Sequence record: FJ373894 | Direction: 5' to 3' (one strand) | From: Shigella phage Ag3 | DNA: 64,000 nucleotides | Shown here: one piece after another, positions 19,013 through 60,458 of the stretch | Layout of the letters: each line of letters starts with the position of its first letter | How positions within the stretch are numbered: position 1 is the stretch's first letter | Notes under the pieces: generated by a model | Database searches by the model: none | What the model was told of the DNA's origin: nothing | The model's input: the letters and a program-made list of their open reading frames with translations, nothing else | Program-made: the position numbers and the translations under genes

Positions 19013-19062
19013 AATTTAGTCCTAAATAGCCATAACACTCTATCTATTTAAGGGCTGAGACC

Positions 19063-20031
19063 ATGTCCGACTTCAAAAAGACAATCGATAAGATCAAAGT
19101 TCTGAACACGAAGGGATTGTCCCAGGCTCAGAAGCAATTGACTTATCCCCTGGACGTCACTGGGGGTAAGACCCTGGGACACTATGTCCTATTCAACATC
19201 AACCGCATCTCCGGTTCATCTTACGGTGACACGGCTACCCAGACTGTCGAGAACCCAATACAGAATCCTCTGGGGAATACTCCTGTGGTCTATGGGTCCA
19301 AGTCTGGTTCCATCACCAAATATGCATGGGCGCGTCACGTTCGCTCGAACGAATCTATTGTTCTGTGTATGCCAGAGTCCATTACAACCAACTATGGCGT
19401 TGGCTGGAATGGCAGTGAGCTGGGGCTGGCTGGAATGGGGGCACAGTTCCTTTCCCGCGCCGCCCAAGACATGACTCAGTTTAAACTGGGTGATGCGCTC
19501 AACGTCGGGAAGGAGATGGGGCGATTCGCTGCCACCAAGGCCATTCAGTCGGCCTCTGAGTCTATTCCGTTCCTACCGACCATCAACGCCCATGACACCC
19601 TTGAGTTGTTCACAGGCACCATGACCAACCCGTATGTGGAGATGATCTTCCAGGGCGTCCGCAACCGTGAGATTCCATTTACATTCAAATTCACGCCGCG
19701 ATCTCAGAAGGAAGCCAAGATGGTCCGTGAGATCATCCGTCTGTTCAAGATGCACATGTACCCTGAGTACAAGTACAACAAGAACTCCAGTGCCTTCTAT
19801 CTGCATCCATCGACCTTTGATATCACGTTCATGGTCAATGGTGAGCGTAACCAATGGCTCCACCGCATCTCCACTTGTGTACTTTCCAACATGTTCGTCA
19901 ACGAGACGCCGGACAGTTCATACGCGGTTCACAAAGATGATGGTATCGTGTCCACGCAGGTTGACATGACCTTCATCGAACTGGAGCCTCTGCATAAAGG
20001 GCGCTTTGAAACCGAAGGCGATAGCTTCTAA
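19063..20031 (+). CDS. putative baseplate/tail structural protein
   Basis: 322 aa; heads an operon ending in a tape-measure-like gene; call by context only. Confidence 0.3.
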   Translation: MSDFKKTIDKIKVLNTKGLSQAQKQLTYPLDVTGGKTLGHYVLFNINRISGSSYGDTATQTVENPIQNPLGNTPVVYGSKSGSITKYAWARHVRSNESIVLCMPESITTNYGVGWNGSELGLAGMGAQFLSRAAQDMTQFKLGDALNVGKEMGRFAATKAIQSASESIPFLPTINAHDTLELFTGTMTNPYVEMIFQGVRNREIPFTFKFTPRSQKEAKMVREIIRLFKMHMYPEYKYNKNSSAFYLHPSTFDITFMVNGERNQWLHRISTCVLSNMFVNETPDSSYAVHKDDGIVSTQVDMTFIELEPLHKGRFETEGDSF

Positions 20032-25853: not shown

Positions 25854-26099
25854 TTACACCTCTTTGTGATTCTTCATCTTGCGAACAGTGCCCACAAATC
25901 CAAGATCCTTCCCACAGTGGGTGCAGATAGCATGGCAAGCACGGTTCTCGCGGTAGGTGCTGTGCTTACAGCGCCATTGCCTGAAAGCCGAACGGATAAC
26001 CGGAATCATGCCGATACAGAAGAGGACCAGGAACACGATACCGGATATCTGAAGTTCAACCAAGAACTTCGCCCACCAGAAACTCATATACTCGCCCAT
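25854..26099 (-). CDS. small membrane protein with C-terminal zinc-ribbon-like motif
   Basis: About 81 aa from ATG 26099 (GGAG upstream); TM helix, then C-x6-C-x2-H-C (CHAICTHC); overlaps the ligase 3' end by about 44 nt. Confidence 0.35.
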   Translation of the reverse strand: MGEYMSFWWAKFLVELQISGIVFLVLFCIGMIPVIRSAFRQWRCKHSTYRENRACHAICTHCGKDLGFVGTVRKMKNHKEV

Positions 26100-27522
26100 T
26101 ATCCGACTCCAACAGGAACACGATGTTTTCGATGTACGCTTTTTGAATCGCATAGACTTCATCCAGCGTGTTGGCCACTTTCTTGTCAATACGGATTTCC
26201 GCAAGGCGTGGCAGGAACAATGACTTCAGCGCATCATCTGTCTTATCCTGTACGCCATTGGAGAGCACTGCGGCAATCTTGCCAATGTAGTCGCCCTGGT
26301 TCTCCCACATCCGGAGCCTCAGCTCATCTGAGATCCCTGAGACGCCAACAACAAGCAAGCCATCGGAAGTCTTACACAGCAGGGAGCCAAAGGTCTTGGC
26401 GTGTTTGCCCTTCTTGTCCGCCTCGTTGAAGCCCACAATTTCAAGGTCACACTCAACCTCCATCTTCAGCTTCAGACCTTCGGAAGAAGTCCCATCTTCC
26501 CACGGCATGTCGGCGGCCTTACAGATCGTGCCTTCTTCTTTGCGAGCCAGCGCGTCTTTGAAGTGGTCGACAGCTTCGGCAAATGAGTGAACAACACGGG
26601 TTTCCTGGACCTGTACCAGCCCATCTTCTCCGTGGAACATTTGCATGATCATGTCGAAGCGGGTTTCATACGGTAGGTCTATGCGCTCGGCGTTGAACCA
26701 CTTCTCATAAGGTACGACATCCCACACCCGGTAGATCACCTGATAACGATCTTCCAGGGGTTCGCCAGTCTGAATCACGCTGTTGAGTTTGCCGTTGCCG
26801 ACAGCACGAGGTAGGATAGAATTCGACTTGAGGTCAACAACGAGTAGTTCGCCATGGAACACACTCTCACCAATCCCCGTATCATAGATGATGTCCTTGA
26901 ACACCAGTGACAGGTTATCAACCGAACCGCCTGCGATAAGGGAACCGGAGCGAGAGCGTATCTCAGGCGCTTTGTTGTAACGGCAGATGATATTGGCGAA
27001 CATACCGTCTGACTTCAGCTGGCTGTAGACGCCGCGCTTGAAGTCCATCTTCTTCAGCAGGTCAATCGTCATGTTGTCGTAACGATGATACGGAAGGATG
27101 TTGATCAGGCGTCCAGTGCCTCCGGCGGCGTTGAATGCAGCGTTGATGCCCTTCTCAGCAATACCCGCCTTGATATCACGGTCCAGGATCATCTGGATGA
27201 GTTCGTGATACTGTGGGTCCATCTTCAGGGCAACAGAGGCCAGCAGGGCATCAGCCTTTTGACCACCGACAAGGCGCTGCGCCATCTGGTCGAGGACGTC
27301 ATAGACTTCGCTGATGTCATCAGTCTTCTCACGGACGAGCATGCGAGGATACGCGCTGAGCTTCAACTCAGTCCGATAGAACGACGTCATTGGGTCATAG
27401 ACATACTGCAGGAAGTCTACCAAGTCTGGGTTGTTCTTGAATGCTTCAGTCAGCACGGCTTTCTTCGCATTGCTGCCTTTGGTTTCGCGAAGTCGGTGGA
27501 CTGTTTCGAGGATAGGGATCAT
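26056..27522 (-). CDS. ATP-dependent DNA ligase (T4 gp30-like)
   Basis: 488 aa (T4 ligase 487); adenylation motif region SQLKSDGMF (KxDG); GGAG RBS. Confidence 0.8.
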   Translation of the reverse strand: MIPILETVHRLRETKGSNAKKAVLTEAFKNNPDLVDFLQYVYDPMTSFYRTELKLSAYPRMLVREKTDDISEVYDVLDQMAQRLVGGQKADALLASVALKMDPQYHELIQMILDRDIKAGIAEKGINAAFNAAGGTGRLINILPYHRYDNMTIDLLKKMDFKRGVYSQLKSDGMFANIICRYNKAPEIRSRSGSLIAGGSVDNLSLVFKDIIYDTGIGESVFHGELLVVDLKSNSILPRAVGNGKLNSVIQTGEPLEDRYQVIYRVWDVVPYEKWFNAERIDLPYETRFDMIMQMFHGEDGLVQVQETRVVHSFAEAVDHFKDALARKEEGTICKAADMPWEDGTSSEGLKLKMEVECDLEIVGFNEADKKGKHAKTFGSLLCKTSDGLLVVGVSGISDELRLRMWENQGDYIGKIAAVLSNGVQDKTDDALKSLFLPRLAEIRIDKKVANTLDEVYAIQKAYIENIVFLLESDNGRVYEFLVGEVLG

Positions 27523-27531
27523 GCGGTGTCT

Positions 27532-27564
27532 CCAGGGTTATATGTGCTGCTATTATAACCCTGG
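27532..27564. repeat. 11-bp perfect inverted repeat with 11-nt spacer, immediately upstream of ligase start
   Basis: CCAGGGTTATA ... TATAACCCTGG; one arm overlaps the ligase GGAG Shine-Dalgarno sequence on the mRNA. Confidence 0.6.
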
Positions 27565-27577
27565 GGACTTCAATAGA

Positions 27578-27730
27578 TTATTGGCGGGTGCGGGATCTTG
27601 CCTGGCTGATAATGATGTCGACGTTCTTTGGGTGATGTTTCTTGGGCTTCAAGGAACGCACCGCAATACAGAACACCAGAACCCCGAATCCGAATAATAT
27701 ATTCGTCAGAAAAACATCAAAGAAAGTCAT
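27578..27730 (-). CDS. small single-pass membrane peptide, paralog 1 of 3
   Basis: 50 aa MTFFDVFLTNILFGFGVLVFCIAVRSLKPKKHHPKNVDIIISQARSRTRQ; ATGA overlap with upstream paralog; motif D-I-I-x-x-A-R-x-R shared with the other two. Confidence 0.5.
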   Translation of the reverse strand: MTFFDVFLTNILFGFGVLVFCIAVRSLKPKKHHPKNVDIIISQARSRTRQ

Positions 27731-27894
27731 TTCCGTCTTCCTCGAGCTTTGCTCACTATGTGGTCGATGCTTTCCTTCCGAAATTTCGATTTCAGAACAC
27801 CGATAGCCCCAGATGCGTGGAGTGCTATGGCGATCGCCACTAATATGGCCGGAGAAGCCCCGACCAGACCATTCAGAAAGTGTTCTAGCGTCAT
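27727..27894 (-). CDS. small single-pass membrane peptide, paralog 2 of 3
   Basis: 55 aa MTLEHFLNGLVGASPAILVAIAIALHASGAIGVLKSKFRKESIDHIVSKARGRRK; not in ORF track (under 60 aa); ATGA overlaps at both ends. Confidence 0.5.
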   Translation of the reverse strand: MTLEHFLNGLVGASPAILVAIAIALHASGAIGVLKSKFRKESIDHIVSKARGRRK

Positions 27895-28629: not shown

Positions 28630-28655
28630 AAATGAATGAGGGGCTTTCGCCCCTC
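28630..28655 (-). terminator. terminator-like hairpin downstream of 28661..29269
   Basis: GAGGGGC-GAAA-GCCCCTC (GNRA loop) on the minus strand followed by ATTCATTTC. Confidence 0.45.
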
Positions 28656-30248: not shown

Positions 30249-30361
30249 CGTTTCCTCTTAAAGGGGATGATCAGAGCTATGATGACAAGCATAGCTGTAA
30301 TCACCCCGCATGCTATCAGACCAAAGGCGAACGACTTCAGAACAAACTCAATCAAATTCAT
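30245..30361 (-). CDS. possible 38-aa membrane peptide
   Basis: MNLIEFVLKSFAFGLIACGVITAMLVIIALIIPFKRKR; ATGA overlap with upstream gene stop; not in ORF track. Confidence 0.25.
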   Translation of the reverse strand: MNLIEFVLKSFAFGLIACGVITAMLVIIALIIPFKRKR

Positions 30362-31563
30362 AACTTCCTCAATTTGGCTCTGGTGACCTGAGTTTGTTTA
30401 ACGCCATTATACTCGGTCAGTTCTTTGACACGACCACGGATGATCATGTCGCCCTGCAGGAACTCGGTATCCATGTACGAGGTCTTCCAGGTAATTGTAT
30501 TACCTTCTGCTGTTTTGAAAGTGAACAGGTAGCTGTCGCCGTATTCATTAGAGAAGAGGAAGGTACGCTTGTCAAACGTGACGCGGACTTCCAGCATTTC
30601 ACCGACTTCTGCTACCCACTTGTTCTCCGTCTTGCGGTCGGTGCGAGGACGATGGATGTAATCGTAATACTTCTTGGCACCCCAACGGACTGTGTTATTG
30701 TCCTTGATGAGGTGATAGCCAGGTTCACACATGCGTTTCAAGCGAACATTGAATTCGTTGGATTCAGACAGCGCGCTGATGAAGAGCTTCATGTGGTACA
30801 TTTCTGACTCGGCGTCTTCGCGATATTCACGTGCCTTAATCAGAAACATCTCGGCATCAGAACCCGCCTTTGGCTTCTGCCCAGCACGCAGGTAGCCCAG
30901 CACCTGGTCAAACAGTTCTGATTTGATGTCCACTCCGGCCAGCAGCACCTGGAAGCATGCACGCAAATAACCGTGGGTGTCCACGAAGCGTTCATTCCGG
31001 ACGCGATAGATCCCCTCTGGGTCGTCTTCATCCGGAATGAAGAATTCGGTGATACCCAGATAGTAGGACATAATCGCATCAAGCGATTTCTGATGCGGTA
31101 CGTAGTGATGCATGCAGGTGCTACCAATCAGCATCTGGGTGTGGGTCTGCTCATTCTCAATCACATATGTGTTCTTGCGATTGATGAGCAGATTGCAGTG
31201 CTGGCACCAAGAGACGTTCTCTCCCTCGAAGCGACGGATGAAGTCGGCATTGATGTTGTCAGACAGTTTGTTCAGGATGACCTTTGGGTATTCGTGATTG
31301 AACTGACCGATAATCTTCCACCCGCCGTAAGAAACCGGGCGGTCAATGCCTTCTCCTTCGAGGGTGACGGGTTTCCACCAGTGAGTGAGAATCTCACCAG
31401 TGATGTCACGGGTGTGGGTCTTGAAGGGTTCACCATAAGTCACAGTCGGGAACGGGACACCCAGCCTTTCGGCAGTGCGCTCGAGCTTCTTCAGCCGCTC
31501 AACGACCAGTTCTTCATTGTCGATCGGAATGTTGAATGTTTTGGCGTTCATTTCCAGCCTCAT
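30358..31563 (-). CDS. hypothetical protein
   Basis: About 400 aa (ATG 31563 or better-placed ATG 31551 with GAGG upstream); C-terminal beta-rich segment; no catalytic motif recognised. Confidence 0.5.
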   Translation of the reverse strand: MRLEMNAKTFNIPIDNEELVVERLKKLERTAERLGVPFPTVTYGEPFKTHTRDITGEILTHWWKPVTLEGEGIDRPVSYGGWKIIGQFNHEYPKVILNKLSDNINADFIRRFEGENVSWCQHCNLLINRKNTYVIENEQTHTQMLIGSTCMHHYVPHQKSLDAIMSYYLGITEFFIPDEDDPEGIYRVRNERFVDTHGYLRACFQVLLAGVDIKSELFDQVLGYLRAGQKPKAGSDAEMFLIKAREYREDAESEMYHMKLFISALSESNEFNVRLKRMCEPGYHLIKDNNTVRWGAKKYYDYIHRPRTDRKTENKWVAEVGEMLEVRVTFDKRTFLFSNEYGDSYLFTFKTAEGNTITWKTSYMDTEFLQGDMIIRGRVKELTEYNGVKQTQVTRAKLRKL

Positions 31564-31635
31564 GATTCAGTAACAACTCTTCAATAGAGATTAAATATTA
31601 GGCGCTTTATTCTTGAAAGTAAAGTTATTGAAATT

Positions 31636-38603: not shown

Positions 38604-38635
38604 TAAACAAAAGGAGCTGCTATTATAGCAGCCCC
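38604..38635 (-). terminator. intrinsic terminator upstream of kinase gene
   Basis: GCTGCT-ATAAT-AGCAGC hairpin (extendable with GG/CC) on the minus strand followed by TTTTGTTTATT. Confidence 0.5.
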
Positions 38636-38665
38636 TTCATCTATTGAACAGCTTCTGAACTTAAA

Positions 38666-43589: not shown

Positions 43590-43687
43590 TTCTTAATTCC
43601 TCTGTTTCCGCCCCTCAGGGCTATTCTGTTACATGTATTTTCAGTTTGCTACAAAGCGGGGTAATTATACCCCGATACTACATTGAT

Positions 43688-44418: not shown

Positions 44419-44716
44419 GGAACACCCCCACAGTTGTCAGTACAAACCGAACCATAATGATAACCAGCAGCAACACTGTAGAAAACACAATGCGCTTAAT
44501 CATTTTGTCACGGATCTGAATGAACTGATATGAGAGGATAGCCTCGGCCTGTTGATCGGCACGAACGTTCGTGTCACGATGTGGTGACAGTGTGTAGAAG
44601 TTGATCTGGTACACATACGCATGAACCAGAGTGAAGAACGACTTCACCCAGACCAAGACAACCACTAACAACAAAGCGAACGTCAGGAAGTTCGCCAACA
44701 ACCAGTAATCTACCAT
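44405..44716 (-). CDS. membrane protein
   Basis: 103 aa; hydrophobic segments at both ends. Confidence 0.4.
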   Translation of the reverse strand: MVDYWLLANFLTFALLLVVVLVWVKSFFTLVHAYVYQINFYTLSPHRDTNVRADQQAEAILSYQFIQIRDKMIKRIVFSTVLLLVIIMVRFVLTTVGVFHAAV

Positions 44717-45306
44717 TATACACCTCTGTTGAAGTCTGGATTATTCTCAATGAAGTAAGAGCCACAAGCCATTATCGCAAACGAATCTACGAGGTCATCG
44801 ATTGGCTTAGGATCCTTAACTTCCAACATGTCCATTATACCGCGCATATTAACATTGAACAGCGACTCGAAGTGAGCGATCATGGCGTGTTTATCCGCGT
44901 TGCCCTTGTCGGTGAACATCTTCTTCACATGGGATGGCGTCACGATCTGGAAGTCGAAATTGTTACGGCGCAGGGCTTGCTTCAACAGAGAGGTATTCTC
45001 TGCGGTCTGGCAGATGTTGTTGGAGTTCTTAGAGTTGCCCATGGCATACCCTTCAAGAGTGATCGCATCCGGCTTCTCGGTCAACAGGACAGCCTCAGCC
45101 CATTTACAGATGTTATAGAAGCGCTCTTCTGGGGTCTCCCACTTCGGCTGCTTCATGATGAGGATGTTCTGGCGAATCTGAGTGCAGTACTTTTCCACAG
45201 TATAATATGCGTAGAAGCGCAGATGATCAAAATCAAGAGGGTCTTTGTCATCCCAGAAGCACAGGGATGGGCAACCATAGGAGTAGTCGATTCCGCAATA
45301 TTTCAT
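44716..45306 (-). CDS. putative RuvC-like Holliday junction resolvase
   Basis: 196 aa; N-terminal GIDYSYG (RuvC GIDPG-like), acidic LEGYAMG, C-terminal IDDLVDSFAIMACG (D..DA.AIA-like). Confidence 0.4.
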   Translation of the reverse strand: MKYCGIDYSYGCPSLCFWDDKDPLDFDHLRFYAYYTVEKYCTQIRQNILIMKQPKWETPEERFYNICKWAEAVLLTEKPDAITLEGYAMGNSKNSNNICQTAENTSLLKQALRRNNFDFQIVTPSHVKKMFTDKGNADKHAMIAHFESLFNVNMRGIMDMLEVKDPKPIDDLVDSFAIMACGSYFIENNPDFNRGV

Positions 45307-45357
45307 GTAAATAGCCCATAACGAAGTTTCATTGGTGTATGGGCTATTTACGCCGGG

Positions 45358-56441: not shown

Positions 56442-57254
56442 TTAACTGAAACTCTTGTATGCAGCAGCGAGCTTCGTGTCGTACTGGTTCTTGGCATACG
56501 CCGGACCATTATAGCGCCGCGCAAACTCAGCCCAGTTCTTGTCCTTCAGAGCCTGCCAGAGCTTGACGTCGGCCTTGATGAACTTCACGAATGCCATCAG
56601 ATGAGCACGTTCGCCTGTCAGGAAGTCATTGAACATCTCCTTGGCGTTGGCGTACCCACAGACCTGGCAGTTGAAGCCCATGATCTGGAAGAGGCCGTAT
56701 GAAGCGCTCTCGTACGCACAATCCTCATCGATGTTGATGGCTGCGTGAAGTCGATCCAACTCCGCGTCGCCGCCCGTGTACCCGCCTGCCACTGGACTGA
56801 CAAGGGTTGGATACATCTGACCAGCAGCATTCGCCCGAGCCTGCCCGAACTTCGCCATCATCTTCTTGTACATGATGTGACGCTCAAACAACGTCTTGAT
56901 CTTACCAGACTTGGTGAAGCCAGTGCCACGGGATTCAACCTGATTGACTGCCTTCACAGAGGCGAGGTCAACTCCCAGCTGGTTGGCTGCGTCGATAAGG
57001 TCAGCCTCAGTCAGGTGATCCTGATGAGAGTCTCCGGCGTTGCGAATAGCATAGGAGGTCTTTGGACCCACAATACCATCAATGACAAGCCCCGCACCCG
57101 CCTGAACAGTCTTGACAGCGTTCTCTGTTGCCTTACCAAAGATGCCGTCAGCGACGAGGGTGAAGCCGATTTTGTTGAGGCTCTGCTGAAGTGATTTGAC
57201 TTCAGAGCCGCGTGTGCCAAGTTTTAGAATGGCCATAAGAAAATACCTCCGCAA
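56442..57254 (-). CDS. endolysin (peptidoglycan-binding domain plus muramidase/transglycosylase-like domain)
   Basis: N-terminal PG_binding_1-like repeat (LKLGTRGSEVKSLQQSLNKIGF...DGIFGKATENAVKTVQ); C-terminal catalytic signature ESASYGLFQIMGFN; start 57254 or ATG 57236. Confidence 0.65.
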   Translation of the reverse strand: MRRYFLMAILKLGTRGSEVKSLQQSLNKIGFTLVADGIFGKATENAVKTVQAGAGLVIDGIVGPKTSYAIRNAGDSHQDHLTEADLIDAANQLGVDLASVKAVNQVESRGTGFTKSGKIKTLFERHIMYKKMMAKFGQARANAAGQMYPTLVSPVAGGYTGGDAELDRLHAAINIDEDCAYESASYGLFQIMGFNCQVCGYANAKEMFNDFLTGERAHLMAFVKFIKADVKLWQALKDKNWAEFARRYNGPAYAKNQYDTKLAAAYKSFS

Positions 57255-57305
57255 TGAATGCGAAGGTATTTAAAGTGAAAGTGAACTACTTGAGGAACTG
57301 CCGTG

Positions 57306-58735: not shown

Positions 58736-59790
58736 TTCACTTTCCTCAGTTCAGCGAATTGCAATGAAGCGGCCATACCCTGGTAGACGTTCTTGGCGAT
58801 CAGCTTCAGGAGGTCTTGTATCGGCATGTTGCCCTTTGATGGCATGACCATGTCGTTGATATCCTTCCACGGAACGTCAGGCGGGAACAGCACGACCTTG
58901 ACACCTTTATCTATCATCTTCTGAATACCATCACAGACCTGCGGGTTCCGGTACTGATTATCAGGGATATAGATGTCGCCCTTCACGCTCAACAAGTCGG
59001 CATCTGCCGACGCCATACAATTCGGCAGGAAGAGGCTATCAATCGGACCTTCCACCACCAGCTTGGTCTTGTGAATGTTCACCCGGTCTTCCCCATAGAC
59101 TTTGGTGTCCTCGTCCTTGGGCTTGACTGTCGCGTATCGCAGGGTCGCGTTCTTGTCGAATGCACGCCCCTGAACGACCTTCATCCGCCCGTCTTGCGTC
59201 CAGAATGGAATTACCAGGCGCTCGTCATCAGGGATCTTCAGTTGCTTTTCGGGGTCTGTTTCAAACAGCTTCAGGTCTTCACGAAAGCGCTGTGTGTAGT
59301 ACAGTAAGGACCAAGTGCTCTCCGGCAGCCCTCGCCACTGTACGTACTGTCGAGCCTTATGGTCAGGCGGTAGTAGATCAAGCCGGAGCATATTGCCGAG
59401 GAGGCTTTCGTCGCGTTTTGCCGCCACTGAACCGATACGGGCGGTCTGTGTCAGCTTTGGCAACGGCTTCAGGGAAGGAAGTGGTCTGCCCGACGTATCA
59501 CCCAGCAGGCGGAACTTCTCCATGTTGTACTCTGTTGAGAGGCGTTCGTCGAACTTCTTCAGCCAGAACTCAAATGACCAGCCATTCATCTGGTTGCAGT
59601 TGTGGCACTTGAACCGGAAGCAGTCATGATCCCGATCATAGAAGAAGTATCCACGGCGCTTGTTAGCAGACTTCGTGGAGTCACCACACAGGGGACAACG
59701 GAAGTTTGCGACAGTACCAACGCGCTCCCACTTGAACTTGTCAAGGCGGGGCGACACGTTGTTGATAAATTGCTCGTCAAGAAATTTCAT
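58732..59790 (-). CDS. DNA primase (T4 gp61-like)
   Basis: 352 aa from ATG 59790 (T4 gp61 about 342); zinc ribbon CPLCGDS...CHNC; TOPRIM-type EGPIDSLFL. Confidence 0.8.
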   Translation of the reverse strand: MKFLDEQFINNVSPRLDKFKWERVGTVANFRCPLCGDSTKSANKRRGYFFYDRDHDCFRFKCHNCNQMNGWSFEFWLKKFDERLSTEYNMEKFRLLGDTSGRPLPSLKPLPKLTQTARIGSVAAKRDESLLGNMLRLDLLPPDHKARQYVQWRGLPESTWSLLYYTQRFREDLKLFETDPEKQLKIPDDERLVIPFWTQDGRMKVVQGRAFDKNATLRYATVKPKDEDTKVYGEDRVNIHKTKLVVEGPIDSLFLPNCMASADADLLSVKGDIYIPDNQYRNPQVCDGIQKMIDKGVKVVLFPPDVPWKDINDMVMPSKGNMPIQDLLKLIAKNVYQGMAASLQFAELRKVK

Positions 59791-60401
59791 TAGATCTTCG
59801 GCCTCTGGAACACTTCGGTCACAGTATAGTCTACACCACGACTTTGAGCTATACACAGTTGACGCCAAGCCCCATACAGGATATTCTGCTCCCCGGCAGT
59901 GTTGCGCTCAAAGTGGGCGAAGCCGTCCAGGAGTTCCATGTAGCTGCGCATGTGTCGGGTAACAGTCCTTCCTCTCTTGATCTGTTCATCAAGATACTTC
60001 TGATAATGCTCTGGTGATGACAATGAAGAGTACTGCATGTCTGGCACATGAACTGGCATCAGGGACTTGCGGGGTGTGAAGTAGAACAACCCCCACTTTG
60101 GTGGCAGGTCTTCAACCCTGATCACATCCTGAGGGCAGACATAAAAGCGGTATGCGCCCATCCCTGTTGTGGGGTCCATCCGATGGGGCTTCTTCTTGTC
60201 AGTGAGAAAGTCGGCGCGGGACACCTTCACTTCCATCAGGACAGAGCACCCGCCTGAACGAAACCCGATGGCATCAGGTGATTCTTTGTTGTCAAACGAA
60301 TTTGGCTCGATGAAGACAGCGCCGCAGTTCATGCGACCGCGCAGGTAGTTGGCCGCGATCTCACATCCTTCGCGGTGTGATGGGATAAAGATTTTGCTCA
60401 T
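59790..60401 (-). CDS. putative PD-(D/E)xK nuclease-fold protein
   Basis: 203 aa from ATG 60401 (AAGGAAAGGA upstream); motif PDAIGF...SVLMEVKVSRADF (D...E-x-K); TAATG coupling to primase. Confidence 0.35.
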   Translation of the reverse strand: MSKIFIPSHREGCEIAANYLRGRMNCGAVFIEPNSFDNKESPDAIGFRSGGCSVLMEVKVSRADFLTDKKKPHRMDPTTGMGAYRFYVCPQDVIRVEDLPPKWGLFYFTPRKSLMPVHVPDMQYSSLSSPEHYQKYLDEQIKRGRTVTRHMRSYMELLDGFAHFERNTAGEQNILYGAWRQLCIAQSRGVDYTVTEVFQRPKI

Positions 60402-60432
60402 TGTCCTTTCCTTTCGGTGAATAATGAGCAAA

Positions 60433-60438
60433 ATTATA
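60433..60438 (-). promoter_or_regulatory. -10 element (TATAAT) candidate
   Basis: Exact TATAAT on minus strand about 32 nt upstream of ATG 60401. Confidence 0.3.
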
Positions 60439-60458
60439 TGCCTTTATTTTGTATTGAC

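Follow-up and report, generated by a model that had tools for sequence, protein, structure and literature searches.

A conserved hairpin with a candidate promoter in its 5' arm at the ribosome-binding site of the DNA ligase gene in Shigella phage Ag3 and related Ackermannviridae

Several genes of bacteriophage T4, namely e (lysozyme), soc, 49 and I-TevI, carry an inhibitory helix at the translation start and a promoter inside it (Uzan & Miller, PMC3014915; McPheeters et al. 1986 cited there). The ribosome sites of gene e and gene 49 (endonuclease VII) are sequestered on early read-through RNA, and late promoters lie within the structure (PMC3014915). In the gp43 operator and the RegA sites of the same phage, it is a protein that recognises the RNA, through sequence-specific loops or AU-rich sites that overlap the ribosome-binding site, and initiation is reduced. 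Phages of the RB49/phi1 type reportedly contain promoter-early stem-loops (PeSL, a term associated with Arbiol et al. 2010), which are said to occur in multiple copies and whose stem-loops are said to be efficient terminators. Closer to the phage considered here, the promoter motif TTCAAT[N14]TATAAT was reportedly first described for 'Viunalikevirus' by Adriaenssens et al. in 2012. A paper on the related phage EspM4VN names it, together with CTAAATAcCcc, as one of two 'unique regulatory motifs' of these phages (PMC7283392). The principle of a promoter within a hairpin is already known, as is the promoter motif of the family; the records and literature searched contained no annotation of, or paper on, the ligase leader, nor any on this motif paired with the sequestration of a ribosome site.

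The leader described here lies in a window of 64,000 nucleotides from Shigella phage Ag3 (FJ373894), the whole stretch of DNA that was analysed, which is part of an Ackermannviridae phage genome of the Agtrevirus-like kind. Over 2.1 kb around the ligase leader, this genome matches Salmonella phages SKML-39 and P46FS4 at 97-98% identity, and the ligase protein is 99.6% identical to its counterpart in Shigella phage ChubbyThor. The gene belongs to a minus-strand block of replication-type genes that also includes primase/helicase and helicase loader. The intergenic space between a 50-aa ORF and the ligase measures 55 nt and is entirely occupied by a conserved element (Table 1). Four co-oriented ORFs (28618 to 27578) adjoin this element with no terminator between them, an order compatible with read-through. 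Two genes upstream of the ligase block, a 202-aa phage protein (28661-29269, minus strand) matches the PspA/IM30 family (E = 1.6e-9), and its stop codon is followed, at about 28630-28655, by a GC-rich hairpin that has a GAAA loop and then a weak U-run. We hold with moderate confidence that this leader works as a T4 gene e-type gate, with a promoter inside its hairpin.

Table 1. Positions in the window of the ligase leader, its parts and comparable hairpins
Feature	Position	Strand	Remarks
DNA ligase CDS	26056-27522	-	488 aa; Pfam ATP-dependent DNA ligase domain
Ligase AUG	27520..27522	-	homologous starts annotated in relatives
Hairpin 3' arm UAUAACCCUGG[A]GAC	27528..27542	-	holds Shine-Dalgarno GGAG (27533-27530)
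Loop AUAGCAGCACA, 11 nt	27543..27553	-	alignment of variants: A27548, A27545 and C27544 (nearly) invariant
Predicted transcription start A	27545..27545	-	in loop, 7 nt past -10; placed by promoter geometry
TATAAT, candidate -10 hexamer	27552..27557	-	top of 5' arm and first two loop bases; 17/17 variants
Hairpin 5' arm GUC[C]CCAGGGUUAUA	27554..27568	-	pairing kept in 17 variants; GUCCCC is the anti-Shine-Dalgarno-like part
Conserved upstream box (A)TCTATTGAAG	27568..27578	-	degenerate form of the family TTCAAT box
TAA stop of the 50-aa ORF upstream of the ligase	27578..27580	-	about 9-10 nt before the first stem base
RuvC-like resolvase hairpin	45307-45351	-	before CDS 44716-45306
Endolysin hairpin	57241-57271	-	before CDS 56442-57236 (Pfam Muramidase and PG_binding_1)
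Hairpin before the 203-aa ORF 59790-60401	60391-60458	-	GTCAAT-N14-TATAAT, then a perfect 12-bp hairpin

On the minus strand, the intergenic mRNA reads TAA UCUAUUGAA GUC C CCAGGGUUAUA AUAGCAGCACA UAUAACCCUGG A GAC ACCGC AUG. The perfect 11-bp inverted repeat with an 11-nt spacer that a sequence-only reading had reported upstream of the ligase is found exactly there, its plus-strand arms being CCAGGGTTATA at 27532-27542 and TATAACCCTGG at 27554-27564. The same reading had the 3' arm end in the GG of the GGAG Shine-Dalgarno sequence, which lies 7 nt from the ligase AUG; this holds for the 11-bp core, but the helix extends outward and covers the whole of GGAGAC. The repeat search gave extended arms of 15 nt with 93% complementarity, corresponding to a stem of 14 pairs and one C·A mismatch (about -21 kcal/mol) in which the outer GUC pairs with GAC beyond the mismatch. 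The claim that an RNA-level hairpin on the ligase mRNA occludes its ribosome-binding site was thus borne out, the occlusion being more complete than had been proposed.

The folding energy that had been suggested as a check was -24.9 kcal/mol for a 101-nt RNA (z = -4.4), and none of 200 shuffled sequences was equally stable. The window contains four perfect inverted repeats of 11 bp or longer (spacer 3-40), against 0.5 expected from 60 first-order Markov simulations, in which the maximum in any single run was 2. The same ligase stem was recovered separately by ViennaRNA, RNAalifold and the repeat search. The excess of repeats over the simulations, the z-score of the fold and the conservation of the element in 224 records together indicate that the inverted repeat is not a chance product. 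The longest inverted repeat in the window is a different one, located at 30974-31058 inside a 401-aa CDS (30358-31563), with 28-nt arms of 79% complementarity, an 11-bp perfect core and a 29-nt spacer.

Some simple identities for the element could be set aside. An intrinsic (Rho-independent) terminator is ruled out by the lack of a U-tract after the stem, which is followed by AGACACCGCAUG; the terminator scan was empty here, in agreement with the sequence-only reading. A search with Rfam covariance models over 27300-27800 returned no family, its sole match being spurious (E = 3.9) and off the element. Nor is the element a repeated genome-wide motif, since TATTGAAGTC-N4-GGGTTATAAT, with up to three mismatches allowed, occurs once in the window, and one place per genome was found in the 224 records. 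Translational coupling through a terminating ribosome is unlikely: given the geometry of the ribosome, a stem that begins about 9-10 nt past the stop codon, at a distance that varies among relatives, is poorly placed for it.

Conservation of the repeat had been named as a test of its significance, and it is conserved: a 64-nt query matches one place per genome in 224 phage records, and wherever a ligase is annotated, in the listed rows or in the fetched records, the element stands directly upstream of it. The 33 copies collected represent 22 distinct sequences, 17 of which were aligned; these come from Agtrevirus-like, Limestonevirus, Kuttervirus and Taipeivirus phages and from unclassified relatives. 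A metagenome scan for further variants added two loci, just one of them informative. In Miltonvirus 2050H1 and Vibrio phage K352, the ligase gene is not preceded by an intergenic leader, which confines the element to the Agtrevirus/Limestonevirus/Kuttervirus/Taipeivirus group. The leader of the window shares 80% identity with that of Kuttervirus, against 48.5% at the third codon positions of the adjoining ligase gene. Homology between the window and Kuttervirus ends exactly at the 5' edge of the element, and the sequence further upstream is unrelated. The gene directly upstream of the leader also differs between genera, right up to the element. Judged from this pattern, the leader marks a junction at which gene content is shuffled, which recalls the exchange of modules through PeSLs. 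Like a PeSL, it is a compact intergenic cassette of putative promoter and stem-loop placed where the upstream gene content differs between relatives; unlike a PeSL, it is single-copy and has no U-tract.

Pairing within the element is maintained across the alignment. Over the 15-pair helix in 17 variants, 92% of the cells are standard pairs, a proportion that drops to 25-53% when the 3' partner is slid by 1-3 columns as a control. Pair 17-57 is G-C in all variants but CRW-SP2, where both sides have changed to A-U, and pair 27-47 is U-A in all but Bullseye, where both sides have changed to G-C. At pair 23-51, A-U, G·U and G-C are all found, and pairs 18-56, 19-55, 21-53 and 22-52 are Watson-Crick in some variants and U·G in others. 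The C·A mismatch is limited to the clade of the window, all other variants having a U-A pair at that position, and variant L015 has two mismatches in the upper stem. The covariation score was matched by 1 of 500 shuffles, although independent covariation events are few and the 5' arm has changed mostly by transitions facing G or U, which keep pairing automatically. The wobble states pair on the sense strand only, which favours an RNA of mRNA polarity as the structured molecule. The loop has a constant length in every aligned variant, while its sequence differs between genera.

The energetic consequences for the ribosome site differ sharply between an RNA that carries both arms and one begun inside the loop. 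Hairpin energies in ten variants range from -17 to -26 kcal/mol. For these ten, opening the 6-nt Shine-Dalgarno region in read-through RNA, modelled with 110 nt of upstream sequence, costs 9-16 kcal/mol, as against 2-4 kcal/mol in an RNA begun 7 nt past the -10 element. When the cost of opening positions -14 to +3 in read-through context was computed for 68 genes of the window, the median was 6.8 kcal/mol. The ligase start, at 16.6 kcal/mol, is the second most occluded of the 68, with the RuvC-like resolvase at 18.1 and the endolysin at 16.4.

The feature of the element that the sequence-only reading overlooked is the TATAAT of the 5' arm. Its invariance includes its unpaired A and T, and its pairing partners (columns 43-45) vary. 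Apart from the hexamer, the loop positions that stay (nearly) constant are an A 4 nt after it, an A 7 nt after it, which is invariant, and the next C. By established promoter geometry, a transcript would start at an A seven nucleotides beyond a -10 element. We infer promoter activity here and a start at the second of these adenines, which would yield a 23-nt leader without the 5' arm. Ahead of TATAAT, the block (A/T)TCTATTGAAGTC is conserved across genera. In the window, the upstream box reads ATCTAT-N15-TATAAT, with two mismatches to TTCAAT, or TCTATT in the N14 register, with three; in Kuttervirus it reads TTCTAT-N15-TATAAT, with one.

The family motif itself is evident in the window. With at most one mismatch, TTCAAT-N-TATAAT occurs seven times at spacing 14, against 0-2 times at the other spacings tried; with at most two mismatches, the counts are 17 and 4-11, respectively. 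Matches to the N14 motif precede replication-type genes, about 22-31 nt from their starts (sites include 6565+, 54742-, 29680-, 25692-, 40828- and 44859-), and the TATAAT of the ligase lies about 29 nt before its start. At N14-class sites, the hexamer directly follows a G-rich run (in a manual count over 11 sites, G makes up 28 of 44 bases), and the ligase TATAAT is also preceded by one, like most perfect-TATAAT sites of the TTCAAT-type class in the window. The ligase leader thus resembles the Ackermannviridae motif in its perfect TATAAT, its G-run and a cross-genus box before a replication-type gene. It differs in having a longer conserved block, TCTATTGAAGTC, which in this extended form is found at the ligase leader alone. 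Membership of the TTCAAT[N14]TATAAT promoter class, with a degenerate box, is plausible from these motifs but not established.

Other promoter types found no match at this place. A canonical sigma-70 promoter is set aside, as no -35 element lies at 16-18 nt; TTGAAG stands 10 nt from TATAAT, at a spacing that is not enriched. A search for sites resembling CTAAATAcCcc gave no match in the ligase leader, which sets aside a late-type promoter there. A generic promoter scan reported nothing at the leader, and no promoter is marked in the six records that carry annotation over it (SKML-39, UPM 2146, LIMEstone1, Maynard, CRW-SP2 and Mooltan). The literature search found no transcription-start or RNA-seq data for any Ackermannviridae phage. 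The 10-mer TCTATTGAAG (27568-27577) recurs at 31578-31587 on the minus strand, in the leader of the 401-aa gene, just past a promoter-like site TTTACT-N17-TAATAT; this second copy is conserved in LIMEstone1 and not in Kuttervirus Maynard, and is probably a coincidence.

As a T4 gene e-type gate, the leader would operate as follows. Read-through RNA from the upstream small ORFs would carry both arms, which would fold into a helix of 14-15 bp with GGAGAC paired to the upstream GUC(U/C)CC, and ribosomes would be blocked from initiating ligase translation on such transcripts. The 5' arm would double as a TATAAT -10 element with a family-type upstream box, and RNA polymerase using that promoter would start about 7 nt downstream, in the loop (around A27545). 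The resulting RNA would lack the 5' arm, and its ribosome site would be free. Ligase output would then be set by the gene's own promoter and insulated from upstream transcription. Of this account, the helix with its conservation and covariation, the invariant TATAAT, the energy contrast and the parallel cases described below are observed; we infer the read-through transcripts and the translational effect, and ligase is probably translated from internally started transcripts only.

The likeness to the T4 gene e type lies in the following. A stable helix sequesters the Shine-Dalgarno sequence in an element conserved among related phages, and, as proposed for the ligase, the DNA of the 5' strand contains a promoter whose RNA would be translatable, upstream read-through being silenced. 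There are also differences. The candidate promoter embedded in the ligase leader is of the TATAAT type, not the gp55-type late promoter (TATAAATA), and the gene encodes a replication or repair enzyme, not a late or toxic function. The internal promoters of T4 are of a later temporal class (late) than the read-through transcripts, whereas the ligase leader has no late-type motif, and its internal promoter looks to be of the same class as an upstream one (29680), so that a temporal switch is not evident. With an embedded promoter outside the late class, the gate may serve to insulate the ligase from upstream transcription and not as a timing switch.

Parallel cases occur within the window. The endolysin hairpin has 13 bp and an energy of -18 kcal/mol (z = -6.4), with the late motif TTAAATAcc in its 5' arm and GGAGG in its 3' arm, 7 nt before the AUG. 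This element was found in 269 phage records; its TAAATA is a late -10 element in the LIMEstone1 annotation, and the hairpin is labelled 'terminator' in the record of Salmonella phage Mooltan. The arrangement closely parallels the control of T4 lysozyme (gene e). The hairpin before the RuvC-like resolvase is a perfect 14-bp repeat with a 17-nt spacer (-22.9 kcal/mol), whose 5' arm starts with the late-motif-like GTAAATAG / GTAAATAGCCC, including TAAATA, and whose 3' arm ends at the AUG; its start is the most occluded translation start in the window, and the structure resembles the control of T4 gene 49 (endonuclease VII). As these two cases mirror T4 genes e and 49, the phage lineage appears to use the promoter-in-hairpin strategy, and the ligase fits into it. 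In the hairpin before the 203-aa ORF, the 5' arm starts inside the -10 element, the AUG lies in the 3' arm and the Shine-Dalgarno sequence is in the loop; the encoded protein has no Pfam match. An imperfect hairpin at 19020-19062 (plus strand) precedes a baseplate gene (19063-20031); its 5' arm holds the late-type CTAAATAGCC, its 3' arm (CUAUUUAAGG) reaches the likely Shine-Dalgarno sequence, and the start is the fourth most occluded in the window.

Other explanations would make the hairpin a regulatory site on the RNA. The sequence-only reading had compared it to a translational operator such as that of T4 gp43; here the bound protein would be the ligase itself or another phage protein, in the fashion of gp43 or RegA. 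Such operators are used by T4-type phages (PMC3014915), and the conserved hairpin does overlap the Shine-Dalgarno sequence, so that both are RNA elements at a ribosome-binding site that reduce initiation. The comparison is not supported by the alignment: the loops, where a protein would be expected to read sequence, are wholly different between genera (AGCAGCACA, AACAAGACGA, TGGATTACAA, ACCATGACAA and ACAAAGAACC), and the invariant positions are limited to the -10 hexamer and those resembling a start site. A helix of about -20 kcal/mol already blocks the ribosome site with no need of a protein, and we know of no ligase that binds its own mRNA, which leaves this explanation unlikely. An effect on RNA fate, be it as an RNase III site, as an RNase E site at the AU-rich loop or as a stabiliser of the upstream message that holds off 3' exonucleases, is equally improbable. 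The element forms a stable stem where two genes meet, with no U-tract; its loop opens with the AU-rich UAAUAG, and other intergenic hairpins of the window (28630-28655 and 38611-38637) look terminator- or stabiliser-like. Typical RNase III substrates (T7 R1.3-like sites) are about 20 bp, or some two helical turns, and the stem is shorter, at 14-15 bp in every variant. Neither the use of the Shine-Dalgarno sequence as the 3' arm, with its GGAGAC pairing kept by changes in the 5' arm, nor the invariant TATAAT with its upstream box is explained by an RNA-fate role. An RNase site, which the sequence-only reading had also mentioned, gained no positive support from the analysis.

The palindrome could also act on the DNA, as a 15/11/15-bp operator for a dimeric repressor or activator spanning about -24 to +18 of the ligase promoter, or as a cruciform presenting the -10 element. 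The arm centres, about 26 bp apart, flank the putative -10 element and start, and symmetric double changes would suit a co-evolving dimer. Among 18 candidate TTCAAT-type sites, the -10 element is enclosed in a Watson-Crick stem of 5 bp or more at 9, against 12% of random positions, although these sites were partly chosen by eye and restriction to N14 matches leaves 4 of 11 with a stem. The half-sites of Kuttervirus and Taipeivirus differ at 2-3 positions that are G·U wobbles in the sense RNA and, read from the other strand, would be A·C mismatches. It is the Shine-Dalgarno sequence that fixes the outer part of the arms, and no candidate for a binding protein emerged. We consider a DNA-level operator or cruciform unlikely. 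The same stem statistic would fit a broader idea, which we regard as very unlikely, that a -10 element within a palindrome is a systematic trait of Ackermannviridae TTCAAT[N14]TATAAT promoters, with the ligase as its extreme and the structure acting on DNA. Such a trait could mean hairpin- or cruciform-assisted opening on hypermodified DNA, or a dimeric regulator of the 15/11/15 palindrome and the TCTATTGAAGTC box, and this DNA-structure-dependent control would be loosely comparable to the hairpin promoters of phage N4. Equally improbable is a constitutive damper of translation without an internal promoter, in which ligase would be made from read-through RNA only, its level simply held down by the hairpin, and TATAAT kept for structure. 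It would suit a promoter box that is degenerate and unannotated in the records examined; yet -17 to -26 kcal/mol over the full Shine-Dalgarno sequence is expected to nearly abolish initiation (for the gene e structure of T4, a 100-fold effect is cited; PMC3014915), and the unpaired A and T of TATAAT and the start A are invariant though they have no pairing role.

Should the ligase leader indeed be a promoter-in-hairpin gate, the Ackermannviridae, which are widely used as biocontrol and therapy candidates, would share with T4 the ploy of a hairpin-hidden ribosome site split by a promoter. Like T4, they would apply it to genes of lysis and recombination, and additionally to a replication enzyme with a non-late promoter. 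The ligase would then be an independently controlled module at a place where the upstream gene content is shuffled between genera, and database annotation would be corrected, for instance the 'terminator' assigned to the endolysin hairpin of Mooltan. No concept would be overturned by the gate model even if it is true.

Two further palindromes in the window are centred on TATAAT, at 38611-38637 (GGGGCUGCUAUAAUAGCAGCUCC) and 43650-43670 (CGGGGUAUAAUUACCCCG), both on the minus strand and each followed by a U-rich run. Located between replication genes, they look, from their sequence, like combined terminator and promoter elements.
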